NCBI GenBank assembly: GCA_038831915.1
Contig: JAWBKB010000004.1
Span: 1-64,000, forward strand
Origin: Candidatus Caldarchaeum sp.
Lineage (GTDB): Archaea > Thermoproteota > Nitrososphaeria_A > Caldarchaeales > Caldarchaeaceae
Direction of reading: 5' to 3'
DNA length: 64,000 nucleotides
The first letter of the stretch is position 1, and each line of letters begins with the position of its first letter. The notes under the pieces are model-generated. The model saw only the letters and a list, made by a program, of their open reading frames with translations. It had not been told where the DNA came from and did not search any database. This document shows positions 1,667 to 29,186 of the stretch, one piece after another. Made by a program: the position numbers and the translations under genes.

Positions 1667-1750
1667 ACCTTACCGGGGGCGACAGCAGGATGATGGCCAG
1701 GTTGAAGGCCTTGCCTGACGAGCTGAGAGGAGGTGCATGGCCGTCGCCAG

Positions 1751-2384
1751 TCCGCAGCAGCAACTTTTTTATACAAAGTCCTGGCGCGTTGTTTTTGATG
1801 ATTTTTATCTGGCTGGTCTTATTGCGGCAGATGGATATGTGTCGGAACGCGAGGTTAGAATTTCCACCTCGAGCCGCGAGTATGCCGAATATGTCGCTGA
1901 CATTGTCCGCCGATGTTTGGGAAAAGCTCCTAAAATAGAAATAGGGAAAGGAGTGCTGCTTTTGCGCATCTATGACGTCAGCTTCGGAAAGATCCTTGAA
2001 ACCAAGTATGGAATTCCGATAGGGAGAAAATCCTCGACAATCCCGCTACCGTTATGGCTTGAATTGCCGGACATCATCGATTATTTGAATGGATATTTTG
2101 ATGGCGATGGTTCAATCACTGCAAACAAATCGGGAGTAACAAACGGCCGCTGGGGGCCGTACATTTCACCGTGAATTGTGATCACTTCAAAGTCGAAATT
2201 ATTTATCGACTCGTTGTCAAATTTTTTGAAAAAATTTGGGTTTAACGTAAAAGGACCTAGCTACGACAACGGTGTATACAGAATAAAAATGTTTGGTAGC
2301 AAAAACTTACGCATATTCGTGAGGATGTTTCAGCTGAGACATCCTCAGAAAAAGACCATGATAGAGTTACTGCTGCGGGGCGAA
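1751..2384 (+). mobile_element. 16S BHB intron at about E. coli 1068 (634 nt)
   Basis: Central helix CGCC/GGCG with AGT and AAT bulges; terminal stem CCGCAGCAGCAAC/GTTACTGCTGCGG. Confidence 0.88.
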
Positions 2385-13962: not shown

Positions 13963-15039
13963 ATGGCGAGAAAGAAATCGGCGGCTAAGCCTGCCTATGT
14001 TGGTTCTTTATTTGGTAAGGACTTTCTGAACACCAACGATTTCAGCCAAGAAGAAATTAGTCGAATCTTGAAGGCCGCGAGAGACCTCCGTGACCGATAC
14101 CGTGCGAGAAAACCCACCGAATTTCTGAAAAACCAGACGTTGTTCATGCTTTTCTACAACAGGTCTCTGCGAACCCGTAACTCCTTTGAAGCAGGTATCT
14201 ATCAGCTGGGAGGACACGCGCATTTCCTCAGCCCTTCAGATGTCTACACGCCCACACTGCCTGAAGACATGATTCCGTATCAAACCGAGTCGATAGCGGA
14301 TGTCGCAAGAGTCCTCAGCACCTATGGAGACGCCATAGCCGTAAGAATATACGGTGACGCGGCAAAATGGCATATCGGCCGTGGCCACAGAGTTATTCAG
14401 GAGTTTGCGAAATGGGCTACCATACCGGTGCTCAACATGGAAGACGACATCTATCATCCGTTTCAAGCTCTTGCTGACATGATGGCGATTACCGACGTAG
14501 CTCCTAAACCTCAGGGAAAGAAATTCGTGGTTTCCTACGCGTATTCGGGAGGGCTTAAGCCGTTGGCTGTCCCACAGAGCTGCATATTGATTGGAACACA
14601 GTTCGGCATGGATGTTGTTTTGGCACATCCGCCGGGCTTCGAACTCGAAGACCACGTCATACAGGCATGCAGGGAGAATGTCGAACAATACGGAGGGTCG
14701 TTCACAATTGTCCACGACATGAAAGAAGCGTTTGAAGGAGCTGACTTTGTCTATCCGAAGGCATGGTCTCCGAAGAAATTCTTCCCACCCTACAACACGA
14801 CAGTAGACAAAGAGGGTGCAACAAAATATCAGGACCAGTTCAAAAACTGGATAACAACGCCCGAACTGATGGATTTGACTAACAAAGGAAAATACATGCA
14901 CTGCGGACCAGCCGACCGAGGACAAGAGGTTATGGACGAAGTTATCGACAGCCCTGTTTATTCGCTTTACTTCCAGCAGGCTGAAAACAGGCTTCACGTC
15001 CAGAAAGCAGTCATGGCTATGACGATGGGGCGGAAATGA
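13963..15039 (+). CDS. YgeW-like carbamoyltransferase (ATCase/OTCase superfamily)
   Basis: SLRTR, HPFQALAD, YAYSGGLKPLAVPQS (compare YgeW WAYSPSYGKPLSVPQG), VYPKAW, YMHCGPAD. Confidence 0.85.
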   Translation: MARKKSAAKPAYVGSLFGKDFLNTNDFSQEEISRILKAARDLRDRYRARKPTEFLKNQTLFMLFYNRSLRTRNSFEAGIYQLGGHAHFLSPSDVYTPTLPEDMIPYQTESIADVARVLSTYGDAIAVRIYGDAAKWHIGRGHRVIQEFAKWATIPVLNMEDDIYHPFQALADMMAITDVAPKPQGKKFVVSYAYSGGLKPLAVPQSCILIGTQFGMDVVLAHPPGFELEDHVIQACRENVEQYGGSFTIVHDMKEAFEGADFVYPKAWSPKKFFPPYNTTVDKEGATKYQDQFKNWITTPELMDLTNKGKYMHCGPADRGQEVMDEVIDSPVYSLYFQQAENRLHVQKAVMAMTMGRK

Positions 15040-16067
15040 AAACCGGCGAAGACATCTTAGACATCATAGGCAACACCCCGCTTCTACGTCTCCGAAACAT
15101 AGAGAAAAAACACGGCCTAACAGCCGAACTGTGGGCGAAACTCGAATTCTACAACCCATCCGGAAGCCTCAAAGACAGAATTTACCGCGAAATGATAACC
15201 AAAGCCATCGAAAGAGGCGACCTGAGGCCCGGAATGGAAATTCTTGAAGTTTCGACGGGCAACGCTGGAATCGCGTGTTCATTCGTAGGAACTCATATTG
15301 GATATCGAGTGACGATAGTTATGCCGGAGGGAATGAGCGAGGAGAGGAAGCAGCTCATCAAGGCCTTTGGCGGAAATCTTGTTTTTACCCCTGGGGCGGA
15401 AAGCGACGTCGACCTCAGCCTTCGGAAAGCTGAAGAAATGATGAAGCAGCACCCGGGAAAGTATTGGTTTCCAAACCAGTTCACCAACCCCGACAACGTT
15501 CAGGCCCATATCAAAACAACAGGTCCAGAAATATGGGAGCAGACTAAAGGAACCGTGGATTGTTTCGTGATGTCGCAGGGTTCCGGCGGAACTGTTAGCG
15601 GTGTTGGAAAATTCCTTAAAGAGAAGAAGCCAAGTGTGAAAATTTATACAGTTGAACCGGCTGAAGCGCCGATAATAAGCGAAGGGCTATGGGGTTCTCA
15701 CAAAATTGAAGGCATTGGAGATGGGTTCATTCCACGCAACCTCGACCTCTCCATATGCGATGGAGTAGTAACTACGACTTCTGATGAAGCCATAGAAACG
15801 GCGAGAGAACTGGCCCGCATGGAAGGAATATTTGCAGGAATTTCAACGGGCTGCAACATCGCTGCAGCGGTCAAAGTTGCCAAAAAGCATCCCCACATCA
15901 GGAAAATAGTCACTCTCGTATGTGATTCAGGCAACAGATATCTGTCCACAGAGCTCTATGGGCCAGGTAAAAAGCATGTCGAGATTCCCGAAAGGGAGCA
16001 TTCGCTAGACGACTATACTTTGGAGATGCGGAAAAAACACGCGGGTCGTCTCGAGATTATAAGGTGA
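15036..16067 (+). CDS. PLP-dependent cysteine-synthase-family enzyme
   Basis: IGNTPL, NPSGSLKDR, STGNAG, QGSGGT, HKIEGIG. Confidence 0.9.
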   Translation: MKTGEDILDIIGNTPLLRLRNIEKKHGLTAELWAKLEFYNPSGSLKDRIYREMITKAIERGDLRPGMEILEVSTGNAGIACSFVGTHIGYRVTIVMPEGMSEERKQLIKAFGGNLVFTPGAESDVDLSLRKAEEMMKQHPGKYWFPNQFTNPDNVQAHIKTTGPEIWEQTKGTVDCFVMSQGSGGTVSGVGKFLKEKKPSVKIYTVEPAEAPIISEGLWGSHKIEGIGDGFIPRNLDLSICDGVVTTTSDEAIETARELARMEGIFAGISTGCNIAAAVKVAKKHPHIRKIVTLVCDSGNRYLSTELYGPGKKHVEIPEREHSLDDYTLEMRKKHAGRLEIIR

Positions 16068-16073
16068 TAAGCT

Positions 16074-16574
16074 ATTTCGTCCCTCAGCTACGATGATAAG
16101 AACGGCGTCATTTACGATAACTTTCTCGGTGGTAGAGTTTTTCTGCTGTCAGCTAAACTTGTCGGCGAAATGCGGTATCTTCTCGCCGGATCAACTTCTA
16201 CAGCCGCGGCAGATACTCTGCTATGGCACATCGGCAACAAGTACGGCCGTGCACTAGCTGGACGAACCAAGGAACTGGGCAAAACAGCTGACGAAAGTAT
16301 GGCGATCTTAGCGCTCGCTGCGCAAAAATCCGGCTGGGGCAGAATAATTCTCGAAAACCGTCTACAGCTTGATGAAACCATAAAAGTTTTCTTCGAAAAC
16401 TGCGCATTCTGCGAAGGGTTGCACGGTGAAAACTCTCCATCATGCTATTTTTTGGCGGGAATTTTATCGGGAATTGCTCAGCGATTGTTCGGTGAAGAAT
16501 TTTCGGCCCGTGAAACGGAATGCCGAGCAGTCGGAGGCAATTCATGCGTTTTTTCCGTTGCAAAGTTTAAGTGA
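16074..16574 (+). CDS. V4R domain protein; first ATG at 16170 but frame is open from 16071
   Basis: SGWG, NCAFC, SCYFLAGILSG, ETECRAVGGNSCVF. Confidence 0.85.
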   Translation: MSSLSYDDKNGVIYDNFLGGRVFLLSAKLVGEMRYLLAGSTSTAAADTLLWHIGNKYGRALAGRTKELGKTADESMAILALAAQKSGWGRIILENRLQLDETIKVFFENCAFCEGLHGENSPSCYFLAGILSGIAQRLFGEEFSARETECRAVGGNSCVFSVAKFK

Positions 16575-16580
16575 TTCAGC

Positions 16581-17837
16581 TTGACGTTTGTTGAAAAACT
16601 GGTTTGCTCGAGATGCGGCGAAGTCTACGACCCAGTGGAAAGTCCAGTGATGTGCCGGAAAAAAGACATGGGCAGGCTCGACATTATCTACGACTATGAC
16701 TGTGTGGCCAGGTCTTTCACACGTTCAAGCTTGGAGACGAGACCGCACATAGGTGTTTGGCGCTTCTGGGAGCTCATGCCTGTCGACAAAAAATACAGAT
16801 CAACACTGTCAGAGGGAAACACAGCTCTGCTCAAAGCTGAAAGGCTTGGAAAACAAATCGGTCTGAAAAACCTGTTTCTTAAAGACGAAACACGCAATCC
16901 AACCGCTTCATTCAAAGACCGCGCCATGGCCGTGGGTGCGGCCAAGGCGTTTGAAACTGCGAGAAAGCAGGTTGTTATTGCTTCCAGCGGAAACGCGGCT
17001 TCGTCTCTAGCTGCTTACAGTGCTTCGTTGGGCCTCAGTTGCACGGCTTTCGTGCCCGAAGACGTGGCTATGGGGAAGGCCTCTCAGCTTCTTCTCTATG
17101 GTGCCAGAGTTGTGCGAGTTAAGCAGGTCGAAGAAGGCCGCGACCCTACCGTTGACCTCATGCTGCAAACGGTGGAAAAGCTGGGATGGTATCCGTGTCC
17201 GAGCTTCGGCCCGTTCAACCCCTACCAAGTTGAAGGCCCAAAAACAATCGTATACGAAGTGGTGATGCAAATGAACTGGCAGCCGCCGGACTTTATTTTC
17301 ATCCCGACAGGCTCGGGATGTCTCGCGACTGGAATTTGGAAAGGCTTGAAAGACCTCAAAACCCTCGGTTTAATAGATCATTATCCGAAAATCGTGCCGG
17401 TTCAGCCTGAGGGAAACATGGCTCTTACACGGGCTATAAAGCAGGGTAAGAAATTCGAGGAAATCGAGCCCGAAAAATGGTCCAAGTCGATCGCGTCCGG
17501 ACTGCTCGACCCGTTTCCATGGGACGGCGACGCTGTACTTGAAGGTGTTAAAGCAACCGGTGGCACAGCTGAATCAGTCAGCGAAGACGAAATTCGGGAT
17601 TCGATGACAAAGCTTGCACGTCTCGAAGGAGTGTTTTCGGAGCCTTCAGGAGCAGTCGGAGTTGCCGCGGCTGAAAAACTTCTACAGCATGGAGTAGTCG
17701 ACCCTTCAGATGACGTAGTCGTCCTCGTCACAGGCTCTGGGCTCAAGGAGCCTGAAAAAATCACAGCGCATACGACCATTCCGTTGACAACGCCTGACAT
17801 CGACCAGTTTCTCAAGCTGCTGAATTTGTCTGTTTGA
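16581..17837 (+). CDS. Threonine-synthase-like PLP enzyme (fold type II)
   Basis: CSRC knuckle, EGNT, NPTASFKDR, SSGNAA, PTGSG, EPSGA, TGSGLK. Confidence 0.9.
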   Translation: MTFVEKLVCSRCGEVYDPVESPVMCRKKDMGRLDIIYDYDCVARSFTRSSLETRPHIGVWRFWELMPVDKKYRSTLSEGNTALLKAERLGKQIGLKNLFLKDETRNPTASFKDRAMAVGAAKAFETARKQVVIASSGNAASSLAAYSASLGLSCTAFVPEDVAMGKASQLLLYGARVVRVKQVEEGRDPTVDLMLQTVEKLGWYPCPSFGPFNPYQVEGPKTIVYEVVMQMNWQPPDFIFIPTGSGCLATGIWKGLKDLKTLGLIDHYPKIVPVQPEGNMALTRAIKQGKKFEEIEPEKWSKSIASGLLDPFPWDGDAVLEGVKATGGTAESVSEDEIRDSMTKLARLEGVFSEPSGAVGVAAAEKLLQHGVVDPSDDVVVLVTGSGLKEPEKITAHTTIPLTTPDIDQFLKLLNLSV

Positions 17838-17868
17838 GGTTTTTATTACGGAATGAGTAGTGTGGGTT

Positions 17869-18825
17869 ATGGCTAGCGGAGAGCTTATCGTGATTGCTTT
17901 AGGTGGAAACGCGTTGCTTAGACGCGGTGACAAAGGCAGTTTCGAAGAACAATACCGAAACGTTCAGAACGCAGCCAAATATCTCGCCGACATCGTCGAA
18001 GCCGGTCACAAACTCGTCATCACTCATGGAAACGGGCCTCAAGTGGGTGCGACACTTCTGCGACACGACGCCGGCCAGAAAATACATGGTATTCCCGCCT
18101 TCCCGATGGATGCCTGCGGAGCGGAAACTCAGGGATTCATCGGATACATCATTCAGCAAAACCTCCGCAACGAACTCAAACGCCGGAGCATAGACAAATA
18201 CGTAATAACTGTGGTGACAAGGGTCATCGTCGATAAGGACGACCCAGCTTTCAAAAATCCAACAAAACCAATAGGCCCGTTCTACACAAAAGAAGAAATG
18301 GAAAAAATCAAGGCTGAACATCCCGAGTATATCTTCGTAGAGGATAAGGCTCGCGGAGGCTGGCGTAGGGTAGTGCCGTCGCCTGACCCCAAAATTATCG
18401 CGGAAAGATTCGCAGTCAAAAAGCTCGTAGATGAAGGCTTCATCGTCGTAGCGAGCGGCGGAGGAGGCATTCCCATAATCGAGGAAAACGGCCGCGCTAG
18501 TGGGGTTGAAGCGGTCATCGACAAGGACTTGGCGGGAGAAAAACTCGCCGAACTAATCAAAGCCGACCGATTCATCATATTGACGGACGTTGACGGAGCT
18601 TACATCAACTATGGAAAACCAGACCAGAAAAGACTTGAAAAAGTTACCGCAAAAGAGGCGAGGAAATATCTTGAGGAGGGGCATTTCGGCTCGGGTTCGA
18701 TGCTGCCCAAGGTTCTCGCCTGCATAAGATTCGTGGAATCCGGTGGAAAAGAAGCCATTATCGCAGAGCTTTCACAGCTAAAGGAAGCGTTCGCAGGAAA
18801 AGCCGGAACACATTTTGTCGCATAA
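17869..18825 (+). CDS. arcC: Carbamate kinase
   Basis: ALGGNAL, HGNGPQVG, PTKPIGPFY, RRVVPSP, GGGGIP, VIDKD, GSMLPK. Confidence 0.97.
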   Translation: MASGELIVIALGGNALLRRGDKGSFEEQYRNVQNAAKYLADIVEAGHKLVITHGNGPQVGATLLRHDAGQKIHGIPAFPMDACGAETQGFIGYIIQQNLRNELKRRSIDKYVITVVTRVIVDKDDPAFKNPTKPIGPFYTKEEMEKIKAEHPEYIFVEDKARGGWRRVVPSPDPKIIAERFAVKKLVDEGFIVVASGGGGIPIIEENGRASGVEAVIDKDLAGEKLAELIKADRFIILTDVDGAYINYGKPDQKRLEKVTAKEARKYLEEGHFGSGSMLPKVLACIRFVESGGKEAIIAELSQLKEAFAGKAGTHFVA

Positions 18826-18830
18826 ATTTT

Positions 18831-19850
18831 TTAAGTTTTTCCCGCCACCAGGGCTAGAATGGCCGCTCTTACGTATAAAAGGTTTTCAGCCTGGTCATAG
18901 ATAACGCTTCGAGGCCCATCCATCACGTCGTCGTCAGCTTCCTGTCCGCGGAACACAGGAAGAACATGTGTCACGATACCATGCTTCGACATCAGGTCGG
19001 TTAGCTGCTTGGTCAGTTTCCAGTCGCGGTATTTGTTGTGCAGCTCGATTTCTTTTTCTCTTCCGAACCTGTTCATACCGACTACGACGCATTCGTGGCT
19101 GGCCCAGCTGCGTGGAAACACGGCGTCTGCATCCCGAAGAGCTTCCTGGTAATCATGTGAAATAGTGAGCGATCCGCCGCTTTCCTCCGCGTTCTGCTTA
19201 GCTAGCTTAACAAGGTTCTCATCTATGTCGAAACCAGGTGGATAAGCGAGTACTACATCCATGCCGAATCGTGTTGCGATTAGCATTTCGTCCTGTATGC
19301 TTCCCCAGCTTCTTATTTTGTCGCTGTAAGTCCACATCAACACGTATTTCTTTTTCTCGATTTTGCCCAGCTTCTCCTTCAAGGTATAGAGGTCGGTGAT
19401 CGCTTGGCTCGGATGAAACATGTCGTCCGCCATATTGATGACGGGTATTTTCGCGTGTTCAGCATATTCTCTTACGACCGCGTTTCCTCTGCCATAGACA
19501 TAATCGACGGCGGATTCGAGAATCCTCACGCCTAGAACATGTCCAAGCCTTTCATACATCTTCGCGATGTCTTTCACAGATTCTCCTTCAGCCCCGCGTG
19601 TTGTTGCGAAATCGATGAACTGGGCGTGGCCGCCCAGCATAGTCGCCGCGGCCTCGAAACTAGCTCTTGTCCTCGTGCTGGTGTTGTAGAAAAGCATGAA
19701 CATCGTCCTGTTTTTGAAAAGCTCAGGTACATCGCCGACCGCTCTCCGTATTTTCAGTGATCTCGCCAGCTCCATTGTTGCGTTGATCTCTTCGATGCTC
19801 CAGTCCTGTGACGAGATGAGGTCTCTGCCAGAGAGCTCTGTCAGAGTCAT
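18831..19850 (-). CDS. Second, divergent YgeW-type carbamoyltransferase
   Basis: STRTR, HPSQAITD, MWTYSDKIRSWGSIQD, VFPRSW, HVLP in place of HCLP. Confidence 0.85.
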   Translation of the reverse strand: MTLTELSGRDLISSQDWSIEEINATMELARSLKIRRAVGDVPELFKNRTMFMLFYNTSTRTRASFEAAATMLGGHAQFIDFATTRGAEGESVKDIAKMYERLGHVLGVRILESAVDYVYGRGNAVVREYAEHAKIPVINMADDMFHPSQAITDLYTLKEKLGKIEKKKYVLMWTYSDKIRSWGSIQDEMLIATRFGMDVVLAYPPGFDIDENLVKLAKQNAEESGGSLTISHDYQEALRDADAVFPRSWASHECVVVGMNRFGREKEIELHNKYRDWKLTKQLTDLMSKHGIVTHVLPVFRGQEADDDVMDGPRSVIYDQAENLLYVRAAILALVAGKT

Positions 19851-19874: not shown

Positions 19875-22205
19875 TTATAGATGCGTGGCTTTGACTAATC
19901 CTTCAAGAACTTTGGAAGGTTTCAGCGGTAGCTCGCGGAAATAAACACCTGTTGCATGTGCGAGAGCTCCTGCGATTGAAGCGGCTGGAAGAACCACTGG
20001 GATTTCACCCATTGCTTTGGCTCCGAAAACGCCGATGCTTCCACGGACTTCGACGATGATGCTCTGTATTTCTTCTGGCGCGTCGGAGGCCGTTGGAATG
20101 ATGAATTGATGCAGGTTAGGGTTGACAAGGTAGCCGCCGTCGTGAATTATTTCCTCAGTCAAGGCATAGCCGAGGCCCATGATGCTCCCCCCTTCGTAAA
20201 CAGCCACCAGCCCCATCGGGTTGATGGCGCGTCCAACATCGTAAGCCGCGGTTAACCGGTCGACCTTCACCACACCGGTTTCGATGTCGACCGTGACTTC
20301 AGCCACCAACGCACCATAAGTGTACTGGTTGTAGGGAGCGCCTTGGCCTGTTTCGGGGTCCCATTTGGTTGGTGGAGCGATGTAGTAGCCGACCGCCTTG
20401 AGTGAAACGTTTTGCTCGTAGCATTTGTTGACTGCTTCACGCCAGCTCAGCGAACGGCCGTTTGGGGTCGTTATCTCGCCGTTTTTGAATTCGAGGTTCA
20501 AAGGCTCTGTGTTGAGGATTTTTGCCGCGACTGAGGCGACCGCGGCCCGTAGCTTTATCGCGGCATCTACCGCTGCTTGGCCGCCGATGACTGTTGTTCT
20601 CGAAGCGACTGTGGGGCCTGCGTTGGGAACCGCTGACGTGTCTGGCCTTTCGAGCCTGACCATGGAAAGCGGGATTCCGAGGACTTCGGCGGTCACTATG
20701 GCGAGAGACGTGAGAGCGCCTGTTCCGTATTCGGTCAACCCTGTCTGAACAACCACGGTGCCGTCACGTTCGATGCGCGAAACCACTGTAGCGAAGTCAT
20801 CCCCCTCGGGACCGAGAGTGTTGCCATGGTAGAGCAATGCGATTCCTATGCCTTTCTTCAAGACCTTGTTTCGACGATTGAATTCATCGAATTCAAGCCG
20901 TATACGTGTAAACTGAGACGTTTCCACGGCTCGCTGGAAACATCGGACGAGTCCGTCGTCTTCGATTTTCTGGCTGGTAGATGTTAAAGACCCGGGCTTG
21001 AGCATGTTCTTTTCACGAATTTCCAGAGGTGAAATGTTGAGCTCCTCTGCGAGCTCGTTCATTATCATTTCTGCGGCGAAATGTGCTTGAGGCGCGCCAA
21101 ATCCACGGGTTGAGCCGGCCATCGTGTTGTTAGTCAGCACGCAGTAGCCGTCAGCCCACACGTTCGGCACCTCATAAGGGCCTGTGCAGTGAAAAGTAGC
21201 CCGGCCGATGACAAGATGGCCTTTCGAAATGTAAGCGCCGGTGTCTTCGATAAGCTTGGACTTCCACGCATTAAGCCTGCCGTCTTTCATTGCACCGACA
21301 ACATTCGTAATTTCAAACGAATGTCTTTTACATTGAACGGTCATGGCTTCGCTCCGTGTAAAAGCCGCGAGCGCAGGTCTTCCAGTGTAGTAGGTAGCGA
21401 GACAGGCATACGCGGCGACGTCTATGGGTGTTTCATCGCTTTTTGGTCCGAAGCCGCCACCGGTAGCCGCCTGAACCACACGGAGCTTGTCATTGGGCAC
21501 GCCGAGTATTTTGATGACTTTGTTGTAGACGTCGTATAGGTTCTGCATCGATGAAATGCAGTTGATTCTTCCATCGCCGTCGAAGAAAGAATAGGCGATT
21601 TCAATTTCTAGCGGAAGCCCGGTGATGAACTGAGTCCGGTAAGTTCTTTCTATAACTACGTCGGATTCCCTCAGACCTTTTTCCACATCGCCTTTCCTAA
21701 TCTTGAAATGAGTAATTACGTTGTCGCGGTCTTGTATTCTCGGTGCGTCATGCTTCATTGCGTCGCGTGGATTAGTCACCACCGGCAATGGTTCGTAAAG
21801 CACGTCAACATGTTCAGCTGCTTCTTCAGCGTCTTCAACCGATTCGCCCACAACCAACGCCACGGCTTCACCGATATGCCGAACCTTGTCGAAGGCCAGT
21901 AAAGGCCTGTCCGAAATGAGGCTTCCGGCGTCGTTAACCCCAGGGATGTCTTGAGCCGTGAGAACTTTAACGACTCCTTTCCGGGTTAATGCGGAGCCGT
22001 AGTCGATTTTTTTGATGTAGCCGTGTGGAATTGTGGACCTGACGGCTTTGACGAAAAGGGTTTTTTCGGTTACGAGGTCTGCGGTGTAGATAGGTTTGCC
22101 CAGAACGGCGTCGAGAGCGTCGACCCGTGCGACTTTTTTCCCGACGATGAAAAATTCCCTTGCCTGGAGGATTTCTTGGAAACGTCTGAGAATTTCTTCG
22201 CTCAC
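19875..22205 (-). CDS. Xanthine dehydrogenase family molybdopterin-binding subunit
   Basis: GGGFGPK, RGFGAPQ, GPTVASR, AKAMGE (catalytic Glu). Confidence 0.95.
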   Translation of the reverse strand: MSEEILRRFQEILQAREFFIVGKKVARVDALDAVLGKPIYTADLVTEKTLFVKAVRSTIPHGYIKKIDYGSALTRKGVVKVLTAQDIPGVNDAGSLISDRPLLAFDKVRHIGEAVALVVGESVEDAEEAAEHVDVLYEPLPVVTNPRDAMKHDAPRIQDRDNVITHFKIRKGDVEKGLRESDVVIERTYRTQFITGLPLEIEIAYSFFDGDGRINCISSMQNLYDVYNKVIKILGVPNDKLRVVQAATGGGFGPKSDETPIDVAAYACLATYYTGRPALAAFTRSEAMTVQCKRHSFEITNVVGAMKDGRLNAWKSKLIEDTGAYISKGHLVIGRATFHCTGPYEVPNVWADGYCVLTNNTMAGSTRGFGAPQAHFAAEMIMNELAEELNISPLEIREKNMLKPGSLTSTSQKIEDDGLVRCFQRAVETSQFTRIRLEFDEFNRRNKVLKKGIGIALLYHGNTLGPEGDDFATVVSRIERDGTVVVQTGLTEYGTGALTSLAIVTAEVLGIPLSMVRLERPDTSAVPNAGPTVASRTTVIGGQAAVDAAIKLRAAVASVAAKILNTEPLNLEFKNGEITTPNGRSLSWREAVNKCYEQNVSLKAVGYYIAPPTKWDPETGQGAPYNQYTYGALVAEVTVDIETGVVKVDRLTAAYDVGRAINPMGLVAVYEGGSIMGLGYALTEEIIHDGGYLVNPNLHQFIIPTASDAPEEIQSIIVEVRGSIGVFGAKAMGEIPVVLPAASIAGALAHATGVYFRELPLKPSKVLEGLVKATHL

Positions 22206-22657
22206 CGCTTTTTCACCTTCTCAAACGCCTGTTCAAACCGGATATAACTACCGCATCTACACAAAACGCTGCGCAAAGCATGGCGGACCTCGTGCCGCGA
22301 CGCGCCCGGATTCATTTCGTAGAGATGTTTCAGCACCAGTAGTGCCGCAGGGATGCAGAACCCGCATTGAACCGCTCCAGTGTCGATAAAGGCTTGCTGA
22401 AGCGGGTGAAGCTTTCCATCGTCGCCGATGCCTTCAACGGTGGTAATGCTTTGGCCATGTGCCTGGTATGCGAGAACAAGACATGAATTGACCGGTTTTC
22501 CGTCAAGTAGGACTATGCAGAGGCCGCAGTCGCCGACGCCGCATCCCTGTTTCACAGATACATAGCCGAGCTTGCTACGCAGAACGTCGCTCAGCCTTTC
22601 GTTGGGCTCGACGTCAACCGAATATCTCTCTCCGTTCACGACCAATTCGACTTTCAT
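22202..22657 (-). CDS. XDH family 2x[2Fe-2S] subunit
   Basis: GCGVGDCGLC, QCGFC, LCRCG. Confidence 0.95.
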   Translation of the reverse strand: MKVELVVNGERYSVDVEPNERLSDVLRSKLGYVSVKQGCGVGDCGLCIVLLDGKPVNSCLVLAYQAHGQSITTVEGIGDDGKLHPLQQAFIDTGAVQCGFCIPAALLVLKHLYEMNPGASRHEVRHALRSVLCRCGSYIRFEQAFEKVKKR

Positions 22658-23487
22658 TCGCGACCCCCGCCATACTGCTCTAAAAGACGGCGGAACAAAA
22701 CACCTGCAACCTTCCGCCTATACCAGGAAGACGCCAAAACGTCATCAACTGGGTTTATCGAATCGCTTAAAAGCTGCGCCGCCTTGGCCAAAGTTTCGCC
22801 GGTCAAAGGCTTGTTTTCGAGGAATTTTTCAACCGAAAGAACCCGTCCAGGAGTATTCATGTCTCTGTGAGACACAGCTACCCTGACAAAGCCGTCTCTC
22901 ATGGCAACCGCGACGGATATCAGGGGATATCTCGAAACACCCATCCAAAGCTTCTCGAAAAAACACCAACTCGACATTGAGAAAATAACGCTTTTCAGCA
23001 AAGCTTTCTCAACCATGCCCTTAATCAGAAAATCATGAAGAGAAATCTTCTTCTCACCTTCGCGGGTGGCGAAGACCAATTCCGCGTCCATGGCTAGGAG
23101 AATGGGTAGAAGGTCTTCGGATGCTCTGCGAAGAATCACGCTTCCGCCGACTGTTGCGCGATACGAAACCGCCGGGGAAGAATAACTTGCGAGAAAATTC
23201 TCGAATGCTGGAACTGATTTTTTCAAAGCTGACGCGAGTTCGTGATGGGTGACCAACGCGCCCGCCGAAACGCGGCCGTTTTCCGTCCTAATTTCCCTTA
23301 GCTGCTCTATGCGAGTGATGTCGACGAATTTTCTGGTTTTCTTGGTTGCCATGGTTAGGGCTGTGATGATTTCTGTGCCGGCGGCTAAAATTTCGCGCGC
23401 AGGTTCGGCTTCGAGAAGGTTCAAAGCTTCGTCAACATTTTCGGCGACTGCGATGTCAAGTCGCGGAATGTTAAGATAGCCTATCAA
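22654..23487 (-). CDS. XDH family FAD-binding subunit
   Basis: AAGTE (variant of GGTD), RATVGG, DDVLASSWYRR. Confidence 0.88.
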   Translation of the reverse strand: MIGYLNIPRLDIAVAENVDEALNLLEAEPAREILAAGTEIITALTMATKKTRKFVDITRIEQLREIRTENGRVSAGALVTHHELASALKKSVPAFENFLASYSSPAVSYRATVGGSVILRRASEDLLPILLAMDAELVFATREGEKKISLHDFLIKGMVEKALLKSVIFSMSSWCFFEKLWMGVSRYPLISVAVAMRDGFVRVAVSHRDMNTPGRVLSVEKFLENKPLTGETLAKAAQLLSDSINPVDDVLASSWYRRKVAGVLFRRLLEQYGGGRE

Positions 23488-23490
23488 GTC

Positions 23491-24858
23491 TTACTTCACC
23501 TTAAGCGGCTCTACAGCTTCAGAAGGTGATTCCCCGAGACGGCTCCACAGTTTTTCGATGGTTTCAACGATGGTTTTTTCAGCTTTTTCTTTGTCAAGCT
23601 TCGTCAGGCGCCTGTTTTCCACGACTTGAACACCGTCGACAAACACATGCTCCACATCGCCGCCTTTCATACCGTTCACAAGATATCCATAAACGTTGCG
23701 GTTCATTGGTGTTGCGTATACTTCGGGCCTGACCACGATGACGTCGGCTTTCTTCCCTACTTCAATCGAACCGATGTCGAGTAGGCCATAGCATTTCGCA
23801 GCGTTAACGGTGGCGAGCTCAACGACTGTTTGTGGAGAAATTATGGATGGGTCTCTGCGGTGAACGCGATGTATGAGAAAGGCGGCTCTCATGTTTTCGA
23901 AGCCATCGAAAACGTATCCATCGTTGCCTAATCCAACGTTGATGTTTGCCTGCAGCATTTCGGGAAGGCTCATCACGCCGACGGCGTTGAGCATGTTGCT
24001 CATAGGATTGTGTGCCACATGTGTTCCTGTTGCGGCGCAGAGCTGGATTTCACGCTGGTTAAGATGGACGCAGTGCGCGAGAACCGTAGAAGGCCCGAGA
24101 AGACCTGTGTCTTTCAACCTCTCCACCGTCCGCTTCCCATATCGTTCAATGTTGTGGTAAACATCGTTCGGCCCCTCAGAAACATGAATAGTGATCGGTG
24201 CGCCGAATTTCTTCGCCGCCTCCATTCCCCGCGCGATGAGGTCATCAGTAATCGTGAAAGACGCGTGAAGGCTTATCATTCCCTTCGCGAGACCGTTACC
24301 ACCCTTTGCGAGAAACCTCACATTTTCTTCAAGTCCTCTCCTACCCTCTTCGACGCTTCGCCGCTCAGTCGCCTCAAACGATATAATTCCTCTGATTCCA
24401 ACTTCGTTGACGGCTTTTGCTATTGCGTCGAGGCTTCCCTCGGGGTTGGGAGGCGCTGAATAGGTGTCAGCGAAAGTGGTTGTTCCGTTTAGGACCATTT
24501 CCATGCAGGCCGCTAACGCGGTCGCATAGGCGTCGTCGTTGTCCATCTTTTCGTCGAGAGGCCACCAAATACGCTGCAGGTTCTCGAGAAAGTCTGTTGT
24601 TGGCCTAATCCGCAGTGGGGCGCCGCGTAAAGCAATACCGTAAAGATGGGTGTGTGCACAGACGAGGCCCGGCATGACGAAACAGCCGCTGGTGTCGATT
24701 ACCTTGTCGAACTTGCCTGCTTTCGCCGCTTCATCAGCTTTACCGACAAATGTTATTTTTCTGTTCTCGAAGCCGACTGCACCGTCCACGATGATTCTCC
24801 GTGATGCGTCCATGGTTACTACGACGCCGCCGCGGAGTAGTACCGACTGACTCACCAT
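23491..24858 (-). CDS. SsnA-like amidohydrolase
   Basis: MPGLVCAHTHLY, DFLENLQRIWWPLD (compare SsnA DFISTLKNLWWRLD), HVSEG, HNPMSNMLNAVG, GLGNDG. Confidence 0.88.
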   Translation of the reverse strand: MVSQSVLLRGGVVVTMDASRRIIVDGAVGFENRKITFVGKADEAAKAGKFDKVIDTSGCFVMPGLVCAHTHLYGIALRGAPLRIRPTTDFLENLQRIWWPLDEKMDNDDAYATALAACMEMVLNGTTTFADTYSAPPNPEGSLDAIAKAVNEVGIRGIISFEATERRSVEEGRRGLEENVRFLAKGGNGLAKGMISLHASFTITDDLIARGMEAAKKFGAPITIHVSEGPNDVYHNIERYGKRTVERLKDTGLLGPSTVLAHCVHLNQREIQLCAATGTHVAHNPMSNMLNAVGVMSLPEMLQANINVGLGNDGYVFDGFENMRAAFLIHRVHRRDPSIISPQTVVELATVNAAKCYGLLDIGSIEVGKKADVIVVRPEVYATPMNRNVYGYLVNGMKGGDVEHVFVDGVQVVENRRLTKLDKEKAEKTIVETIEKLWSRLGESPSEAVEPLKVK

Positions 24859-24859
24859 G

Positions 24860-25870
24860 CTACGCCTCCGCGATGCTTTTGATGAGGTATTCAGGGTCTC
24901 CGCTCAAGGGGAGCAAGAGGGGCGAAGTGCATCCATGAGCCATGTATTCCTTGACTTTGGCTATTACTTCTGAAACAGTTCCGGAGGCGGTTATCATGCG
25001 GACGACTTCATCGGGCACAATTTCCGTGGCTTTTTCTATTCCACCGGGTTTAGCGGGCCAACCGCCCATGACGCGTTGAACTTCCTCAATCAAATCTTCG
25101 CTTACGCCGCTCGCCTTCATGATGTGTGGTTGCTGTCCTAGAGTCATGGTTACGTGTTTTTTCGCGAGTTTGACCGCTTTATCGCTGTCAGGATGCATCG
25201 AGCATGCGATCAGCTGAGGTCTGTCGATGTCTTCGAGCCTTCGACCTACTTTGGCCGCTCCCTTGCGCAGATATTCGAGTGCGGTGTCGTTGTATTTCGG
25301 TGAAACCAGATAGTTTAGTAAGACGCCATCTCCGATTTCTCCTGCGAGCTCCATCATCTTCCACCCTGTGGCCCCGATGTAGATTGGGATATTACGCGGT
25401 TTTTCACCCGCGCCATGTAGAACGTCGAGCCTGACCCCACGCATCTTGACAAACTTCCCTTCGAACGTTACTTCTTCCATGCGGAAGAGCCGGCGAATTA
25501 CTTCGACGTATTCACGCATACACAGCAAAGGCTCTGTCCGTTCTATCCCTACTTTCCACGCGAGCGGGTCCCACCACGCCCCGAGGCCGAGCATCACCCT
25601 GCCATCGCTTAGCTCATCCATGGTGGCGAAAGTTTGAGCGATGAGGGCGGCGTTACGCGTCCATGTGTTGATGACGCCGGCTCCAACTCTGATTTTCGAA
25701 GTGACGGTGGCTATGGCCGTCATCGGTGTCAACGCGTCTCTGGCCAAACGTGATTCAGCAACCCACGCTGATTCGAAACCATACTGTTCAGCGAGCTGTG
25801 CATAACGAACCATGTCACGGACATGCATGTCTTGGAGATACAGACCCCAACGTATAGTGGACGTCATCAA
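24860..25870 (-). CDS. Mer-like luciferase-like (LLM) F420/flavin-dependent oxidoreductase
   Basis: GFESAWVAE, TMDELSDGRVMLGLG, IPIYIGATG, AGEIGDGVLL. Confidence 0.88.
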   Translation of the reverse strand: MMTSTIRWGLYLQDMHVRDMVRYAQLAEQYGFESAWVAESRLARDALTPMTAIATVTSKIRVGAGVINTWTRNAALIAQTFATMDELSDGRVMLGLGAWWDPLAWKVGIERTEPLLCMREYVEVIRRLFRMEEVTFEGKFVKMRGVRLDVLHGAGEKPRNIPIYIGATGWKMMELAGEIGDGVLLNYLVSPKYNDTALEYLRKGAAKVGRRLEDIDRPQLIACSMHPDSDKAVKLAKKHVTMTLGQQPHIMKASGVSEDLIEEVQRVMGGWPAKPGGIEKATEIVPDEVVRMITASGTVSEVIAKVKEYMAHGCTSPLLLPLSGDPEYLIKSIAEA

Positions 25871-25949: not shown

Positions 25950-27737
25950 ATGTGGAAACGGGTAAAGCTTCCTCACGTAACAAAAAATTTGGTTAGAACA
26001 GCGTTGGGGCTTGAACACGCTGACCTAGTGATAACGAATGGTAATGTGGTTAATGTCCACACGCGGGAAATTATGGAGGAAGTGGATGTGGCGGTTAGGT
26101 TTGGAAGAGTTGCACTTGTTGGCGACGCGCAGCCATGCATCGGCCCCAACACGGTCGTTTACGACGCTTCTAACAAATTTCTGGTTCCAGGGTTGATAGA
26201 TCCCCATGTTCACATCGAAAGTTCGATGGTTGGTGTTACGGAATTCGCCCGCATAGTCCTACCGCATGGAACGACGACGGTGTTTATCGACCCGCATGAA
26301 ATCGGGAATGTTTTTGGATTGGACGGTGTGAAGTTGATGATTGATGAGTCGAAGAATTTACCGCTCAAAGTCTTTGTCACGTATCCTTCGTGTGTGCCGG
26401 CGGCTCCCGGCTTCGAAACAGCGGGGGCTGCTGTAGGGCCCGAGGAAGTCGCCGAAGCTATGAAGCTTGAAGAAGTAATTGCTCTCGGCGAGATGATGAA
26501 TTTCCCAGGAGTGTTGGCCGCTGATGAAAAAGTTCACGCCATGATTGCTGAAACCTTGAAAGCCGGCAAAATCGTTGAGGGACATGATTCGGGGCTTTTG
26601 GGCCGTGAACTAACTGCATACACGGCTGCGGGAATAACTTCCACACATGAAAGCGTCACCAAGCGACAAACTTTAGAAAGGCTGCGGAACGGCATGTATG
26701 TTTATCTCCGTGAAGGAAGCGCTTGGCTCGACGTAAAGGAAACCATCAGAGCATACACCGAGACAGGAATAGACCCGAGACACATCTGTCTCTGCACCGA
26801 CGACAAAGAGCCGGCTTCGATTCTCCGCGATGGACACATGGACCACAGCCTTCGTCGAGCAATCCAGGAAGGTGTTGACCCTTTGACGGCAATTCAAATG
26901 GCGACTTTAAACCCGGCTGAAAGATACCGTCTCTCCTACGAGCTTGGAAGCATCGCGCCGGCGAGGATGGCCGACATATTGGTCGTCTCGGATTTGTCGA
27001 AGTTCAAAATCGAAGCTGTTTTCGCTGACGGTGAGCTGGTGGCTGAAAACGGAAAACTCATCAAAAATCTTCCGTCATACAACTATACTGAAAAATTTAT
27101 GAGAAGCGTAAAAATTCCGAAGCAGTTTACACCTGAAGATTTCATAATCGGTACGAATCGCAAAGAGTCGGAGCTCCGTGTCCGAGTCATAGAAGCTATC
27201 GAAGGGAGTGTGTTGACTAAACATCGGATTGAGCGTCTCGAAGCTTCAAAAGGAGTTTTGCCAGCGGACCCGGATAGAAGCATTTTGAAAATCGCTGTTA
27301 TCGAGCGTCACGGCAAGACGGGTGCCATGTCTCTCGGCTTTACGAAAGGTTTCGGATTTAGGAAAGGTGCTGTTTCTTCGACCGTTGCTCATGACAGCCA
27401 CAATTTGATGGTTGTCGGATACGATGAAAAAGACATGGCTCTGGCTGCGAATGAAAACGCCCGCATCAACGGCGGAATCGTGACGGTCGCGGATGGAGAA
27501 GTATTGGCCCGTGTCGAACTTCCTTTGGCCGGGCTGATGTCCGTAGAGTCCGCCGAAAAAACCGCTGAAAAACTCAACAAAACCTATGAAATCTGGCGAA
27601 ATCTCGGATGCGAATGGGTTTCACCCTTTATGACGTTATCGCTTCTCAGTTTAAGCGTCATCCCCGAACTCCGAATCACCGACAAAGGCTTGCTGGACAC
27701 CGTGACGTTCCAGTTTGTCGACCTCATAATCGACTGA
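25950..27737 (+). CDS. ade: Adenine deaminase
   Basis: DPHVHIESSM, DPHEIGNV, GEMMNFPGV, REGSA, CTDD, AHDSHN. Confidence 0.95.
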   Translation: MWKRVKLPHVTKNLVRTALGLEHADLVITNGNVVNVHTREIMEEVDVAVRFGRVALVGDAQPCIGPNTVVYDASNKFLVPGLIDPHVHIESSMVGVTEFARIVLPHGTTTVFIDPHEIGNVFGLDGVKLMIDESKNLPLKVFVTYPSCVPAAPGFETAGAAVGPEEVAEAMKLEEVIALGEMMNFPGVLAADEKVHAMIAETLKAGKIVEGHDSGLLGRELTAYTAAGITSTHESVTKRQTLERLRNGMYVYLREGSAWLDVKETIRAYTETGIDPRHICLCTDDKEPASILRDGHMDHSLRRAIQEGVDPLTAIQMATLNPAERYRLSYELGSIAPARMADILVVSDLSKFKIEAVFADGELVAENGKLIKNLPSYNYTEKFMRSVKIPKQFTPEDFIIGTNRKESELRVRVIEAIEGSVLTKHRIERLEASKGVLPADPDRSILKIAVIERHGKTGAMSLGFTKGFGFRKGAVSSTVAHDSHNLMVVGYDEKDMALAANENARINGGIVTVADGEVLARVELPLAGLMSVESAEKTAEKLNKTYEIWRNLGCEWVSPFMTLSLLSLSVIPELRITDKGLLDTVTFQFVDLIID

Positions 27738-27777: not shown

Positions 27778-29142
27778 ATGATGGGGAAAGATAATCGAAT
27801 TTCGAGGAGAAAATTTCTCGCGGTATCTTCTGGTGTGGCCGCTGGAGGAATAGCAGCCGGTGCCATCGCGGGTGGTCTCGCCGGATATCTAATTGGCGCA
27901 TCTCAGGCTCCCGCTGCTGTGACGAGAACTGTGACGGCTCCCGCCCAAACGGTCACCACCACCGTTACAGCTCCCGAACGGCTGAAGGTGGGTTACATCT
28001 ACGTTGGGCCGGTAGGTGACTATGGTTGGACTTTTGCACATGACCAAGGGCGGAAATACGCCGACGGCCTCTACCGAAACGTCGACAGCATATACATCGA
28101 AAGCGTTCCCGACCCTCAGGCTCCGGGTGCTATTGAATCCTTGATAAATCAGGGCGCGGACCTTATTATCACAACGAGCTTCGGGTTCATGGATGCTACC
28201 GCTGAAGCCGCGGCGAGACATCGTGACAAATACTTTGTTCACATTTCGGGCTATCGGAGCGGAGCTGCTGGAAACGCGCCTCAAAACATGAGCAGTGCTT
28301 TCGCCGAGTTCTACCAGCTTTACTATCTCAACGGTTTGGCTGCCGGAGCTGTTACGCAGACAGGTGTCGTCGGATACGTTGCTGCTTTCCCAATTCCTGA
28401 AGTGGTGCGACACATAAACGCCTTTGTACTCGGAGCTAACTATGCATACAGGAGACGCACGGGCCGCAATATTCGAGCTTATGTTAGCTGGTTGTTCAGC
28501 TGGTTCGACCCTGGTAAAGCTAGAGAAGCATCCGTGGCTTTAATCGAGCAGTCCAACGCCGATGTTCTGGCTTTCACCGAGGACACCCCCGCTACTTTGC
28601 AGGTCGCTGAAGAATACACCACGCAAAGAGGCAGAAGAGTCTGGAGCTTCAGCCACTACAACGACATGTCCAGCTATGGTCCGAACGCTCATCTAACTGG
28701 TCAAATTGTGAACTGGGGCCCGATTTACCTCGACTTCTACCGGATGGTTGGAACTGGTTCTTGGGTTTCGGTCGACATCTGGACGAGAATCGGCGACTAC
28801 ATGCCCTTTAGGTGGACGAGACCGCCTGCTCAAAGCACGGCTACGCAGGTCGACGGCACGCTTCAGCTCGGCAAGCTAAGCCCAGCAATACCAAGCGAAT
28901 GGCAGGCTGAAATCAGGCTCCGCTACGAACAGATGAAAGAACTGCTTTTCGAACCTTTCAGCCCTGAAGGAAACCTTGGAGAGCCGATACGGGCCCAAGA
29001 CGGCGAAGTAATGATAGACGGCCAAACCTACGTCGTCAGCAAAAGAACCGGTGAAAGAAGGTCGGGTGCGAGGGCGGACCGAGACGCGTTGTGGGAAATG
29101 GACTGGTTCGTCGAATACATTGAAAGCGAGCTGCCCCGCTGA
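27778..29142 (+). CDS. BMP-family (purine/nucleoside) ABC substrate-binding protein with Tat signal
   Basis: SRRKFL twin-arginine motif, Thr-rich linker, VGPVGDYGWTFAHDQG, TTSFGFMD, PIPEVVRHINAF. Confidence 0.92.
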   Translation: MMGKDNRISRRKFLAVSSGVAAGGIAAGAIAGGLAGYLIGASQAPAAVTRTVTAPAQTVTTTVTAPERLKVGYIYVGPVGDYGWTFAHDQGRKYADGLYRNVDSIYIESVPDPQAPGAIESLINQGADLIITTSFGFMDATAEAAARHRDKYFVHISGYRSGAAGNAPQNMSSAFAEFYQLYYLNGLAAGAVTQTGVVGYVAAFPIPEVVRHINAFVLGANYAYRRRTGRNIRAYVSWLFSWFDPGKAREASVALIEQSNADVLAFTEDTPATLQVAEEYTTQRGRRVWSFSHYNDMSSYGPNAHLTGQIVNWGPIYLDFYRMVGTGSWVSVDIWTRIGDYMPFRWTRPPAQSTATQVDGTLQLGKLSPAIPSEWQAEIRLRYEQMKELLFEPFSPEGNLGEPIRAQDGEVMIDGQTYVVSKRTGERRSGARADRDALWEMDWFVEYIESELPR

Positions 29143-29186
29143 AAGCTTTTAAAACCCATAAATTTTTTGCAATTAAATTCACACTG

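Follow-up and report, generated by a model that had tools for sequence, protein, structure and literature searches.

What do two different carbamoyltransferases do in an archaeal gene cluster that also encodes a carbamate kinase? The question is raised by a stretch of 64,000 nucleotides from Candidatus Caldarchaeum sp. (GenBank assembly GCA_038831915.1, contig JAWBKB010000004.1, positions 1 to 64,000), here called the window, which is bases 1-64000 of contig C4 in a source genome of 1.59 Mb that is 95.6% complete. The two proteins, A and B, are encoded at the ends of the segment 13963..19850, and the closest homologues of B carry the source name Candidatus Caldarchaeum. An earlier note on this DNA had proposed that A and B remove both ureido groups of diureidopropionate with phosphate, giving two carbamoyl phosphates instead of one. 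The present analysis suggests, with a probability of about 0.5, that this region encodes the lower half of the reductive (2,8-dioxopurine) purine/urate pathway in an archaeal form, in which both ureido groups are phosphorolysed by A and B together. This reading draws on the gene content of the locus, the conservation of motifs within each transferase family, the co-occurrence of A and B, and the alternation of A with the hydrolase YgeY, all of which are observed directly.

Two carbamoyltransferase families with different second sites

13963..15039, plus strand: carbamoyltransferase A (P0001, 358 aa), with the Pfam domains PF02729 (OTCace_N) and PF00185 (OTCace)
18831..19850, minus strand: carbamoyltransferase B (P0002, 339 aa), with the Pfam OTCace_N and OTCace domains

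Both genes are intact and encode the motifs that had been quoted for them, YAYSGGLKPLAVPQS and MHCGP in A and TYSDKIRSWGSIQD and THVLP in B. The two proteins are 39% identical (133/343, E 2e-88). Family conservation was assessed in an alignment of 148 A-family and 190 B-family sequences, and active-site residues were mapped onto the table in PMC4581275 (Shi et al. 2015). The canonical HCLP, which the earlier note had found missing from both proteins, is replaced in a manner fixed for each family: HCGP stands in 148 of 148 A-family rows and H-V-x-P in 190 of 190 B-family rows, where x is L in 183 and M in 7. Invariant throughout the A family (n = 148) are SLRT, R128, HPFQ, HCGP, E160, K199, K266, and R343; the corresponding set in the B family (n = 190) is STRT, R85, R109 (189/190), HPxQ, HVxP, A141, R180, and R247. 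Set against N-acetylornithine carbamoyltransferase (AOTCase), ornithine carbamoyltransferase (OTCase), and YgeW, the two families differ as follows.

80s loop: long in A, with Y95 at the position of AOTCase W77; short and OTCase-like in B, with the invariant R85 at a position that is Gln in OTCase and YgeW
Conserved Arg at the AOTCase R112 position: R128 in A; R109 in B (189/190)
AOTCase E144 / YgeW Q160 position: E160 in A; A141 in B
YgeW D124 position: K135 in A (147/148); D116 in B (165/190)
HPxQ motif: HPFQ in A; HP(T/S/C/A)Q in the B family, with HPSQ in the B of the window
AOTCase K252 / YgeW K270 position: K266 in A; R247 in B
AOTCase R322 position: R343 in A; variable in B (L/G/R/N)
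Loop: YSGGLKPLAVPQS in A, with KPLxVPQ in common with YgeW; Y-S-x-x-(I/V)-R-(S/G)-W-x-S-x-Q in B

Within the so-called proline-rich loop, A has two prolines (YSGGLKPLAVPQS), as does YgeW, whereas the B of the window has none (YSDKIRSWGSIQD) and proline is rare across its family. Both proteins align with AOTCase and YgeW through the extended 120s loop, where OTCases are gapped; this loop, like the proline-rich one, is a feature of the knotted transcarbamylases (AOTCase, the N-succinylornithine enzyme, and YgeW, also called YTCase). The AOTCase triad E92/N185/K302 reads T108/P200/E322 in A, and the OTCase hallmarks DxxxSMG and HCLP are missing from A and B alike. Because each family combines complete carbamoyl-phosphate motifs with invariant second-site residues of its own, A and B are predicted to be two competent enzymes with different specificities.

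Curated models place neither protein within a named family. On the AOTCase model NF003384 (cut-off 288), A scores 286.1 bits, its best NCBIfam match, and B 230.3 bits; on the OTCase model TIGR00658 (cut-off 280.85) the scores are 228.5 and 209.8 bits, and the best OTCase NCBIfam score of B, 210.6 bits, is likewise below cut-off. In the PDB, A is matched best by the AOTCase of Xanthomonas campestris (X. campestris; 3kzc, 214 bits) and B by the OTCase of Pyrococcus furiosus (197 bits), followed by AOTCase (177 bits); YgeW (3q98) matches both at about 130 bits, and N-succinylornithine carbamoyltransferase (SOTCase) matches A at 94 bits only. Among the three enzymes of Escherichia coli itself, YgeW is marginally the nearest (148 bits for A and 147 for B, against 138 and 112 for ArgI). 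With the curated models below cut-off and the DxxxSMG and HCLP motifs missing, neither A nor B is, on these comparisons, a plain ornithine or acetylornithine carbamoyltransferase, the identity that the earlier note had named as fatal to its proposal.

In a maximum-likelihood tree, E. coli YgeW groups with A (support 100/99), B (100/100), and a further archaeal subfamily, C; the clade that they form (97/94) excludes the OTCases. This tree retained 31 of 349 rows, those at least 72% identical to a kept row having been dropped, and was built from an alignment without AOTCase, SOTCase, or PTCase rows; it does not resolve how these four branch within their clade, and the YgeW branch is long. The description of A and B as YgeW-type therefore holds for this wider branch and fails for the curated YgeW family, on whose models they score far under threshold (NF005538, cut-off 453: A 150.0 and B 152.0 bits; TIGR03316, cut-off 500: 148.3 and 145.5 bits). 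As judged from their sequences, A and B are two distinct, well-conserved families of the YgeW/AOTCase-type branch. Structure prediction, which had been suggested as a check, gave confident AlphaFold2 models (pLDDT 90.1 for A and 95.6 for B), for both of which AOTCase is the best structural match (TM-score by query 0.84 for A and 0.87 for B). The Foldseek search did not discriminate between subfamilies, since AOTCase, the unknotted P. furiosus OTCase, and YTCase all fall at TM-scores of 0.80-0.87, and it is uninformative on a trefoil knot in the C-terminal domain.

Co-occurrence of A and B and alternation of A with YgeY

The phyletic profile covered 301 genomes sampled from the phylum, with orthologue thresholds set at clear gaps in the identity lists: at least 53% identity for B, 49% for the SsnA-like amidohydrolase of the same cluster, 62% for A, and 50% for its ThrC-like pyridoxal phosphate (PLP) enzyme. 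Of the 301 genomes, 26 have B, and the set with the SsnA-like gene is identical. A is found in all of these and in one more, the fragmented genome G242, where it lies at a contig end, and the ThrC-like gene occurs in the 26 and in two further genomes. The 26 genomes represent three families; in two of these some members are without all four genes, and in one family A and B are both present but 26-640 kb apart. Five further genomes have a seemingly lone B locus. A is encoded elsewhere in four of them, including an Asgard (Hodarchaeaceae) metagenome-assembled genome (MAG), and the fifth is a 0.8-Mb Hadesarchaea MAG. In a Hadesarchaea MAG and a Hodarchaeaceae MAG, the gene just upstream of B encodes an aldehyde:ferredoxin oxidoreductase (AFOR) and not a xanthine dehydrogenase (XDH) (L053:2958-5072 and L056:7570-9819).

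Gene neighbourhoods were compared at 80 loci with B relatives. Open reading frames (ORFs) no shorter than 70 aa were considered, in flanks of up to 10 kb where the contig extended that far; many loci are short. A lies near B at 26 of the 80 loci, carbamate kinase and the ThrC-like gene at 28 each, an XDH large subunit at 23, the CysK-like PLP enzyme at 21, and an SsnA-like gene (at least 45% identity) at 16; at least one of these partners is found at 40. The Caldarchaeum loci keep the whole arrangement of the window. In Desulfurococcaceae, operons read B, A, carbamate kinase, SsnA-like, a DHO_dh+Fer4 protein that is UacX/PreA-like, and ThrC-like; longer forms also include genes for XDH, CysK-like, adenine deaminase, and cyclic amidohydrolase proteins. 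The UacX/PreA type is the one named as the ring reductase of Clostridioides difficile in PMC12507026. Complete genomes of cultured Thermogladius strains encode A, B, carbamate kinase, an SsnA-like protein, and a UacX-like protein. A pyrimidine reading of this SsnA and DHO_dh module was set aside on account of the accompanying XDH, adenine deaminase, and xanthine/uracil permease genes.

At 4 of the 80 loci, all from Thermoplasmatota or 'Euryarchaeota' MAGs, the gene that follows B encodes an M20 protein that matches E. coli YgeY best. One of these proteins was scanned with the YgeY model and exceeded its cut-off of 321 with 405.1 bits. An A orthologue was not found in these four Thermoplasmatota-type genomes, whose completeness is not given, and M20 genes are found at 0 of the 26 loci that carry A. 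In the phylum sample, all genomes with B (26 of 26) also have A, while at 4 of 4 Thermoplasmatota-type loci, from genomes in which A was not found, B stands beside a YgeY-type M20 gene, a pattern that fits the view that A stands where YgeY stands. Three of the B and YgeY genomes (G302-G304) also have SsnA-like genes, 30-34% identical to both the SsnA-like protein of the window and E. coli SsnA. The stretches fetched from G302 and G303 contain ThrC-like and second PLP enzyme genes; a cyclic amidohydrolase is encoded in G302 and G304, a xanthine/uracil permease in G302, and a UacX-like (DHO_dh+Fer4) reductase and an adenine deaminase in G303. The purine cluster on G303:C18 further includes a Beta_elim_lyase gene, of the tyrosine phenol-lyase/tryptophanase family, between the SsnA-like and UacX-like genes (L122:8398-9777), and its product is a candidate for a further PLP enzyme of the last step.

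Subfamily C, which is 39-44% identical to A, has a different setting. In 10 genomes from another family of the phylum its gene lies directly beside a dihydropyrimidinase gene, one of which was scanned and scores 540 bits on TIGR02033 (cut-off 393). PreA and GltD/PreT-like genes are nearby at three of the four C loci fetched (L117, at G136:C1:154000-164000, and L118-L120) and carbamate kinase at two; the one PreA scanned scores 532 bits (cut-off 335). From its sequence context, this looks like reductive pyrimidine breakdown with phosphorolysis replacing beta-ureidopropionase.

The locus and its genome

The genes of the cluster form two convergent, tightly packed operons. The plus-strand operon begins with A and continues with the CysK-like, V4R, ThrC-like, and carbamate kinase genes, and the minus-strand operon runs from LLM (a luciferase-like protein) through SsnA-like and the FAD, Fe-S, and Mo subunits of an XDH-type enzyme to B as its last gene, with overlaps or gaps of no more than 24 bases. 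The earlier note had both transferases flanking carbamate kinase. This is true of B, which adjoins the kinase convergently with 5 bases between their stop codons, and not of A, which is separated from it by the CysK-like, V4R, and ThrC-like genes. Beyond A and B, the features are as follows.

15036..16067, plus strand: CysK-like PLP enzyme (PF00291; TIGR01139 362.9 bits, cut-off 350.95)
16170..16574, plus strand: V4R-domain protein, 134 aa (PF02830)
16581..17837, plus strand: ThrC-like PLP enzyme, 418 aa (PF00291; NF006050 303.7 bits, cut-off 303)
17860..18825, plus strand: carbamate kinase (TIGR00746 437.1 bits, cut-off 358.25)
19875..22205, minus strand: xanthine-dehydrogenase-type molybdenum subunit (PF01315, PF02738, PF20256)
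22202..22657, minus strand: [2Fe-2S] subunit of the Mo enzyme (PF01799, PF00111)
22654..23487, minus strand: FAD subunit of the Mo enzyme (PF00941, PF03450)
23491..24858, minus strand: SsnA-like amidohydrolase, putatively ring opening (best NCBIfam match SsnA NF005540, 365 bits, cut-off 444)
24860..25870, minus strand: luciferase-like (LLM), probably F420-dependent oxidoreductase (PF00296)
25950..27737, plus strand: adenine deaminase (TIGR01178 569.7 bits, cut-off 472.5)
27778..32773, plus strand: Bmp/PnrA-type ATP-binding cassette (ABC) uptake system of binding protein, ATPase, and two permeases (PF02608, PF00005 twice, PF02653 twice)

The start of the CysK-like gene overlaps the stop of A by 4 bases, and its product matches PDB cysteine synthases at up to 284 bits. 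The V4R protein scores 46 bits, below cut-off, against the C-terminal part of the MsvR model and is a possible small-molecule sensor by its domain. The ThrC-like protein, which matches the PDB threonine synthase 2zsj at 188 bits, is a candidate stand-in for YgeX. In two Caldarchaeum-genus genomes the frame of its orthologue has one internal TAA (G145:C11:11073-12311 and G207:C5:27921-29159), which could mean that the gene is a pseudogene, that the sequence contains an error, or that translation starts elsewhere. Carbamate kinase is 47% identical to E. coli YqeA. The Mo subunit scores 493 bits on the XdhA model (cut-off 780) and has 31% identity with E. coli XdhA and 30% with XdhD. E. coli SsnA matches the SsnA-like protein at 32% identity and 187 bits, whereas GuaD reaches 90 bits. 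All of the best NCBIfam matches of the LLM protein are F420 LLM families, every one below cut-off. Neither a YgfK nor a UacX ring reductase is encoded in the window, where the LLM gene (PF00296) is found instead, and its product is a candidate for the ring reductase that replaces them. The Bmp/PnrA-type ABC system probably imports nucleosides or purines.

Besides A and B, the genome encodes one ATCase and two canonical OTCases (382.7 and 390.7 bits, cut-off 306), which brings its transcarbamylases to five; LysW-type deacylase genes are also present. The window has no M20 gene, as the earlier note had stated: the six PF01546 matches of the genome lie on contigs C2, C3 (two), C8, C10, and C13, and none on C4. 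The other circumstance that it had named as telling against double phosphorolysis, a YgeY elsewhere in the genome, was not encountered, the best M20 protein of this 95.6% complete genome scoring 159.6 bits against a cut-off of 321. YgeX is likewise not found above cut-off in the same genome (best 62.6 bits, cut-off 276). A hydantoinase/dihydropyrimidinase is encoded on contig C2 (TIGR02033 433 bits, cut-off 393; 35% identity to E. coli HyuA), directly adjoining a second three-subunit XDH-type Mo enzyme (C2:15985-20922), and orthologues of this hydantoinase (47-51% identity) lie directly beside ThrC-like and SsnA-like genes in a sister family. On contig C9 a cyclic amidohydrolase of the allantoinase/dihydroorotase-like type stands beside two further Mo large subunits. 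By analogy with XdhA and XdhD of E. coli, the several XDH-type enzymes may reflect a division of labour. The F420 glutamyl ligase CofE is present (C2:102084-102827, 290 bits, cut-off 180.65), whereas the FO-synthase subunit CofH was not found across the genome (best 17.7 bits) despite the F420-type LLM gene in the cluster; either the cofactor is scavenged or CofH falls within the missing ~4% of the genome.

In RNA-library run X1, contigs at least 99% alike cover parts of the CysK-like, ThrC-like, kinase, B, XDH, SsnA-like, LLM, and deaminase genes, although DNA carry-over is possible; no contig covers A, a gap that in itself proves nothing. Run X2 yielded just three short partial pieces, 90-95% alike. 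Two ORFs of the window lie apart from the cluster. One, of 1267 aa (35696-39499, minus strand), has all five Rpb1 domains, so that subunit A of RNA polymerase is here a single chain rather than separate A' and A''; the other, of 145 aa (1737-2174, plus strand), has a LAGLIDADG_3 domain and may represent a homing endonuclease or the remains of an intein.

A proposed pathway with two phosphorolytic steps

The presence of XDH, SsnA-like, LLM, adenine deaminase, and carbamate kinase genes in two convergent operons points to a purine pathway. In the proposed scheme, purines would enter via the Bmp ABC system, with adenine deaminase feeding the pathway, and would be acted on by xanthine-dehydrogenase-type enzymes, one encoded in the window and a second beside the C2 hydantoinase. 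The F420-type luciferase-like reductase would then remove ring aromaticity, after which the SsnA-like hydrolase would open the six-membered ring and the C2 hydantoinase the five-membered ring to give 2,3-diureidopropionate. B, as the putative counterpart of YgeW, would remove one ureido group with phosphate, and A, in place of the bacterial hydrolase YgeY, would remove the other, also with phosphate. Carbamate kinase could convert both carbamoyl phosphates to ATP, up to 2 ATP per purine, and the ThrC-like and/or CysK-like PLP enzymes would handle 2,3-diaminopropionate in place of YgeX. The order of action, B before A, is a guess based on the pairing of B with YgeY elsewhere and on the invariant Glu160 of A, which, more speculatively still, could hold the free amino group of the mono-ureido intermediate. 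For the earlier proposal of double phosphorolysis, then, the comparative data fit a placement of A at the YgeY step, while the phosphorolysis itself, the substrates, their order, the two-ATP yield, and the handling of diaminopropionate by PLP enzymes are what we infer from it.

A bolder formulation, tentative and a little short of even odds, is that many archaea ferment purines without any ureido hydrolysis, with B (in the role of YgeW) and A (in that of YgeY) as dedicated, anciently diverged families, a doubled ATP yield, and new PLP enzymes (ThrC-like, CysK-like) replacing diaminopropionate ammonia-lyase. Family A would then represent a new activity, a mono-ureido-diaminopropionate (albizziin-type) phosphorylase.

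Several points weigh against the proposed pathway. The hydantoinase lies outside the window, on contig C2, and the SsnA-like, LLM, and XDH proteins all score under curated cut-offs. YgeW gave a smaller product peak than the hydrolase UacY in the experiments described in PMC12507026, and ureido phosphorolysis is thermodynamically poor, so that two such steps in series would need a strong pull. The published studies, two in number, disagree on which ureido group YgeW cleaves, according to the commentary PMC12990295, and A and B are therefore not mappable to ureido positions. B has no Arg or Lys equivalent to AOTCase R322, a position that is L, G, R, or N in its family, and no Pro in its 'proline-rich' loop. 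The two PLP enzymes are not YgeX relatives (ThrC-like against YgeX, 21% identity and 40 bits), and the end product thus need not be diaminopropionate; the ThrC-like frame, moreover, has an internal TAA in 2 of the 28 genomes with an orthologue. On the comparative side, the 26 genomes with A and B come from three families only and so are not 26 independent events, the identity thresholds were chosen after the gaps in the score lists had been seen, and A counts as 'not found', not as absent, in the four Thermoplasmatota genomes (completeness not given).

Alternative explanations

Both transferases may belong to the purine pathway and yet have different ureides as substrates, from parallel or earlier branches, rather than taking the two ureido groups of a single molecule in turn; one of them might, for example, take the exocyclic ureido group of ureidomethyl-hydantoin or of 5-ureido-dihydrouracil before ring opening, or the two might divide stereoisomers between them. 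The differing invariant second-site residues of A and B would suit such a division, as would their placement in separate operons here and their lack of linkage in many genomes, and E. coli SsnA is described as yielding two isomeric products (PMC12507026). That study lists ureidomethyl-hydantoin and 5-ureido-dihydrouracil as racemates that can be bought, and it used a purchased albizziin standard. We nevertheless consider this explanation unlikely: it does not account for the presence of a YgeY-type hydrolase in precisely those places where A was not found, and the second ureido group would still need an enzyme, none having been found in the cluster or the genome. It is distinctly improbable that only one catabolic phosphorolysis takes place, with the second ureido group leaving in another way, such as PLP-dependent beta-elimination by the CysK-like or ThrC-like enzyme, and with the other transferase serving another role, in pyrimidine ureides or amine carbamoylation. 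Two PLP enzymes of beta-replacement/elimination families are indeed conserved in these clusters, and the position of subfamily C beside dihydropyrimidinase and PreA indicates that such enzymes also serve pyrimidine-type ureides. However, a role outside the SsnA pathway does not predict the common phyletic pattern of A, B, and the SsnA-like gene (26 of 26, with A in one more), and both proteins have full carbamoyl-phosphate sites.

The earlier note had also raised the alternative that A and B form one mixed (heteromeric) enzyme, which has become less likely and is now very improbable. Transcarbamylase active sites are shared by neighbouring subunits (PMC4581275), and no genome of the phylum sample has B without A; yet B lies beside YgeY in four genomes where A was not found, the two genes belong to separate operons in the window and are as much as 640 kb apart in other genomes, and each protein keeps every motif of a homotrimer site. 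Plain OTCase, AOTCase, and SOTCase identities for A and B were considered and rejected, given the sub-cut-off models, the missing DxxxSMG and HCLP motifs, the canonical OTCases elsewhere in the genome, and the purine-cluster setting. That A or B instead serves arginine synthesis, as an anabolic carbamoyltransferase for ornithine, N-acetylornithine, or N-succinylornithine, is scarcely credible, even though A falls 2 bits under the AOTCase cut-off with its 286.1 bits, relatives are named 'ornithine' or 'N-acetylornithine carbamoyltransferase' in their sources, and the T/P/E of A at the three positions that discriminate AOTCase from SOTCase is closer to the SOTCase pattern. The genome already has its two canonical OTCases and LysW-type deacylase genes, DxxxSMG and HCLP are absent, W77 has become Y, and the PDB SOTCase match is only 94 bits. 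Furthermore, the purine cluster that encodes the transferases also contains carbamate kinase, and they are distributed like SsnA and not like arginine synthesis.

Relation to known systems

The reductive urate/2,8-dioxopurine pathway, which turns urate or 2,8-dioxopurine into pyruvate, ammonia, and carbamoyl phosphate, was described in bacteria in 2025 (PMC12507026; bioRxiv 10.1101/2025.04.24.650524), and the commentary PMC12990295 calls it restricted to anaerobic bacteria. If the present reading of the window is true, with A and B each phosphorolysing one ureido group, the pathway also exists in several archaeal lineages, and functions can be proposed for two families whose members, where their sources name them, are called 'ornithine' or 'N-acetylornithine carbamoyltransferase' or 'hypothetical protein'. 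It would also mean two ATP per purine by substrate-level phosphorylation, which matters for energy-limited thermophiles. Moreover, the A/B pair, in which the two steps would be split over two comparable enzymes of one fold, may help settle which ureido group goes first. A literature search that took in PMC10547907 turned up no account of paired transferases or of the pathway in archaea; the supplements of the pathway papers were outside its scope. The archaeal twin-transferase arrangement is best filed as a variant of the known pathway with two so-far unnamed carbamoyltransferase families.

The closest parallel is the YgeW/YgeY/YqeA system of E. coli, in which YgeW and YqeA are reported to make ATP from diureidopropionate (bioRxiv 10.1101/2025.04.24.650524). 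There, as here, a catabolic transferase stands beside carbamate kinase in a setting of XDH-type, SsnA, and hydantoinase genes, although in the archaeon the XDH-type and SsnA-like proteins score under curated cut-offs and the hydantoinase is on another contig. YgeW shares with A and B the extended 120s loop, FGMDVxLAHP, and ADxV(Y/F)P(K/R)(A/S)W, and with A also the KPLxVPQ loop. In contrast, YgeW is only 29-32% identical to A and B and is longer (396 aa, against 358 and 339 aa), its terminal helices, its 120s and 240s insertions, and its post-HCLP insertion being gaps in both. The archaeal cluster further differs in having two transferases, no YgeY or YgeX, an F420-type LLM protein rather than YgfK, and an archaeal host. 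In Chloroflexota SsnA clusters, an F420 luciferase-family gene stands beside SsnA where YgfK or UacX stand, as in the window; these clusters are merely noted in PMC12507026, whose survey is bacterial and, in the portion considered here, makes no statement on twin transferases or archaea.

Resemblances to other transcarbamylases lie in fold and logic. The AOTCase of X. campestris (3kzc/3kzk) is the best sequence match of A (214 bits, against 175 for B) and the best structural match of both; it is like A and B in length and in its extended 120s loop, and like A only in its long 80s loop and in E144/K252/R322. It differs in being anabolic and encoded in arginine clusters, and its E92/N185/K302 are replaced here by T/P/E, its W77 by Y, and its HCLP by HCGP or HVLP. 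The catabolic OTCase and PTCase that act with carbamate kinase in the arginine and agmatine deiminase pathways follow the same logic, phosphorolysis of a ureido group leading to ATP (PMC4581275; bioRxiv 10.1101/2025.04.24.650524). However, they belong to the unknotted OTCase branch, carry DxxxSMG or the PTCase motif, and serve one to a pathway, whereas the archaeal locus has two transferases, neither of them an OTCase.

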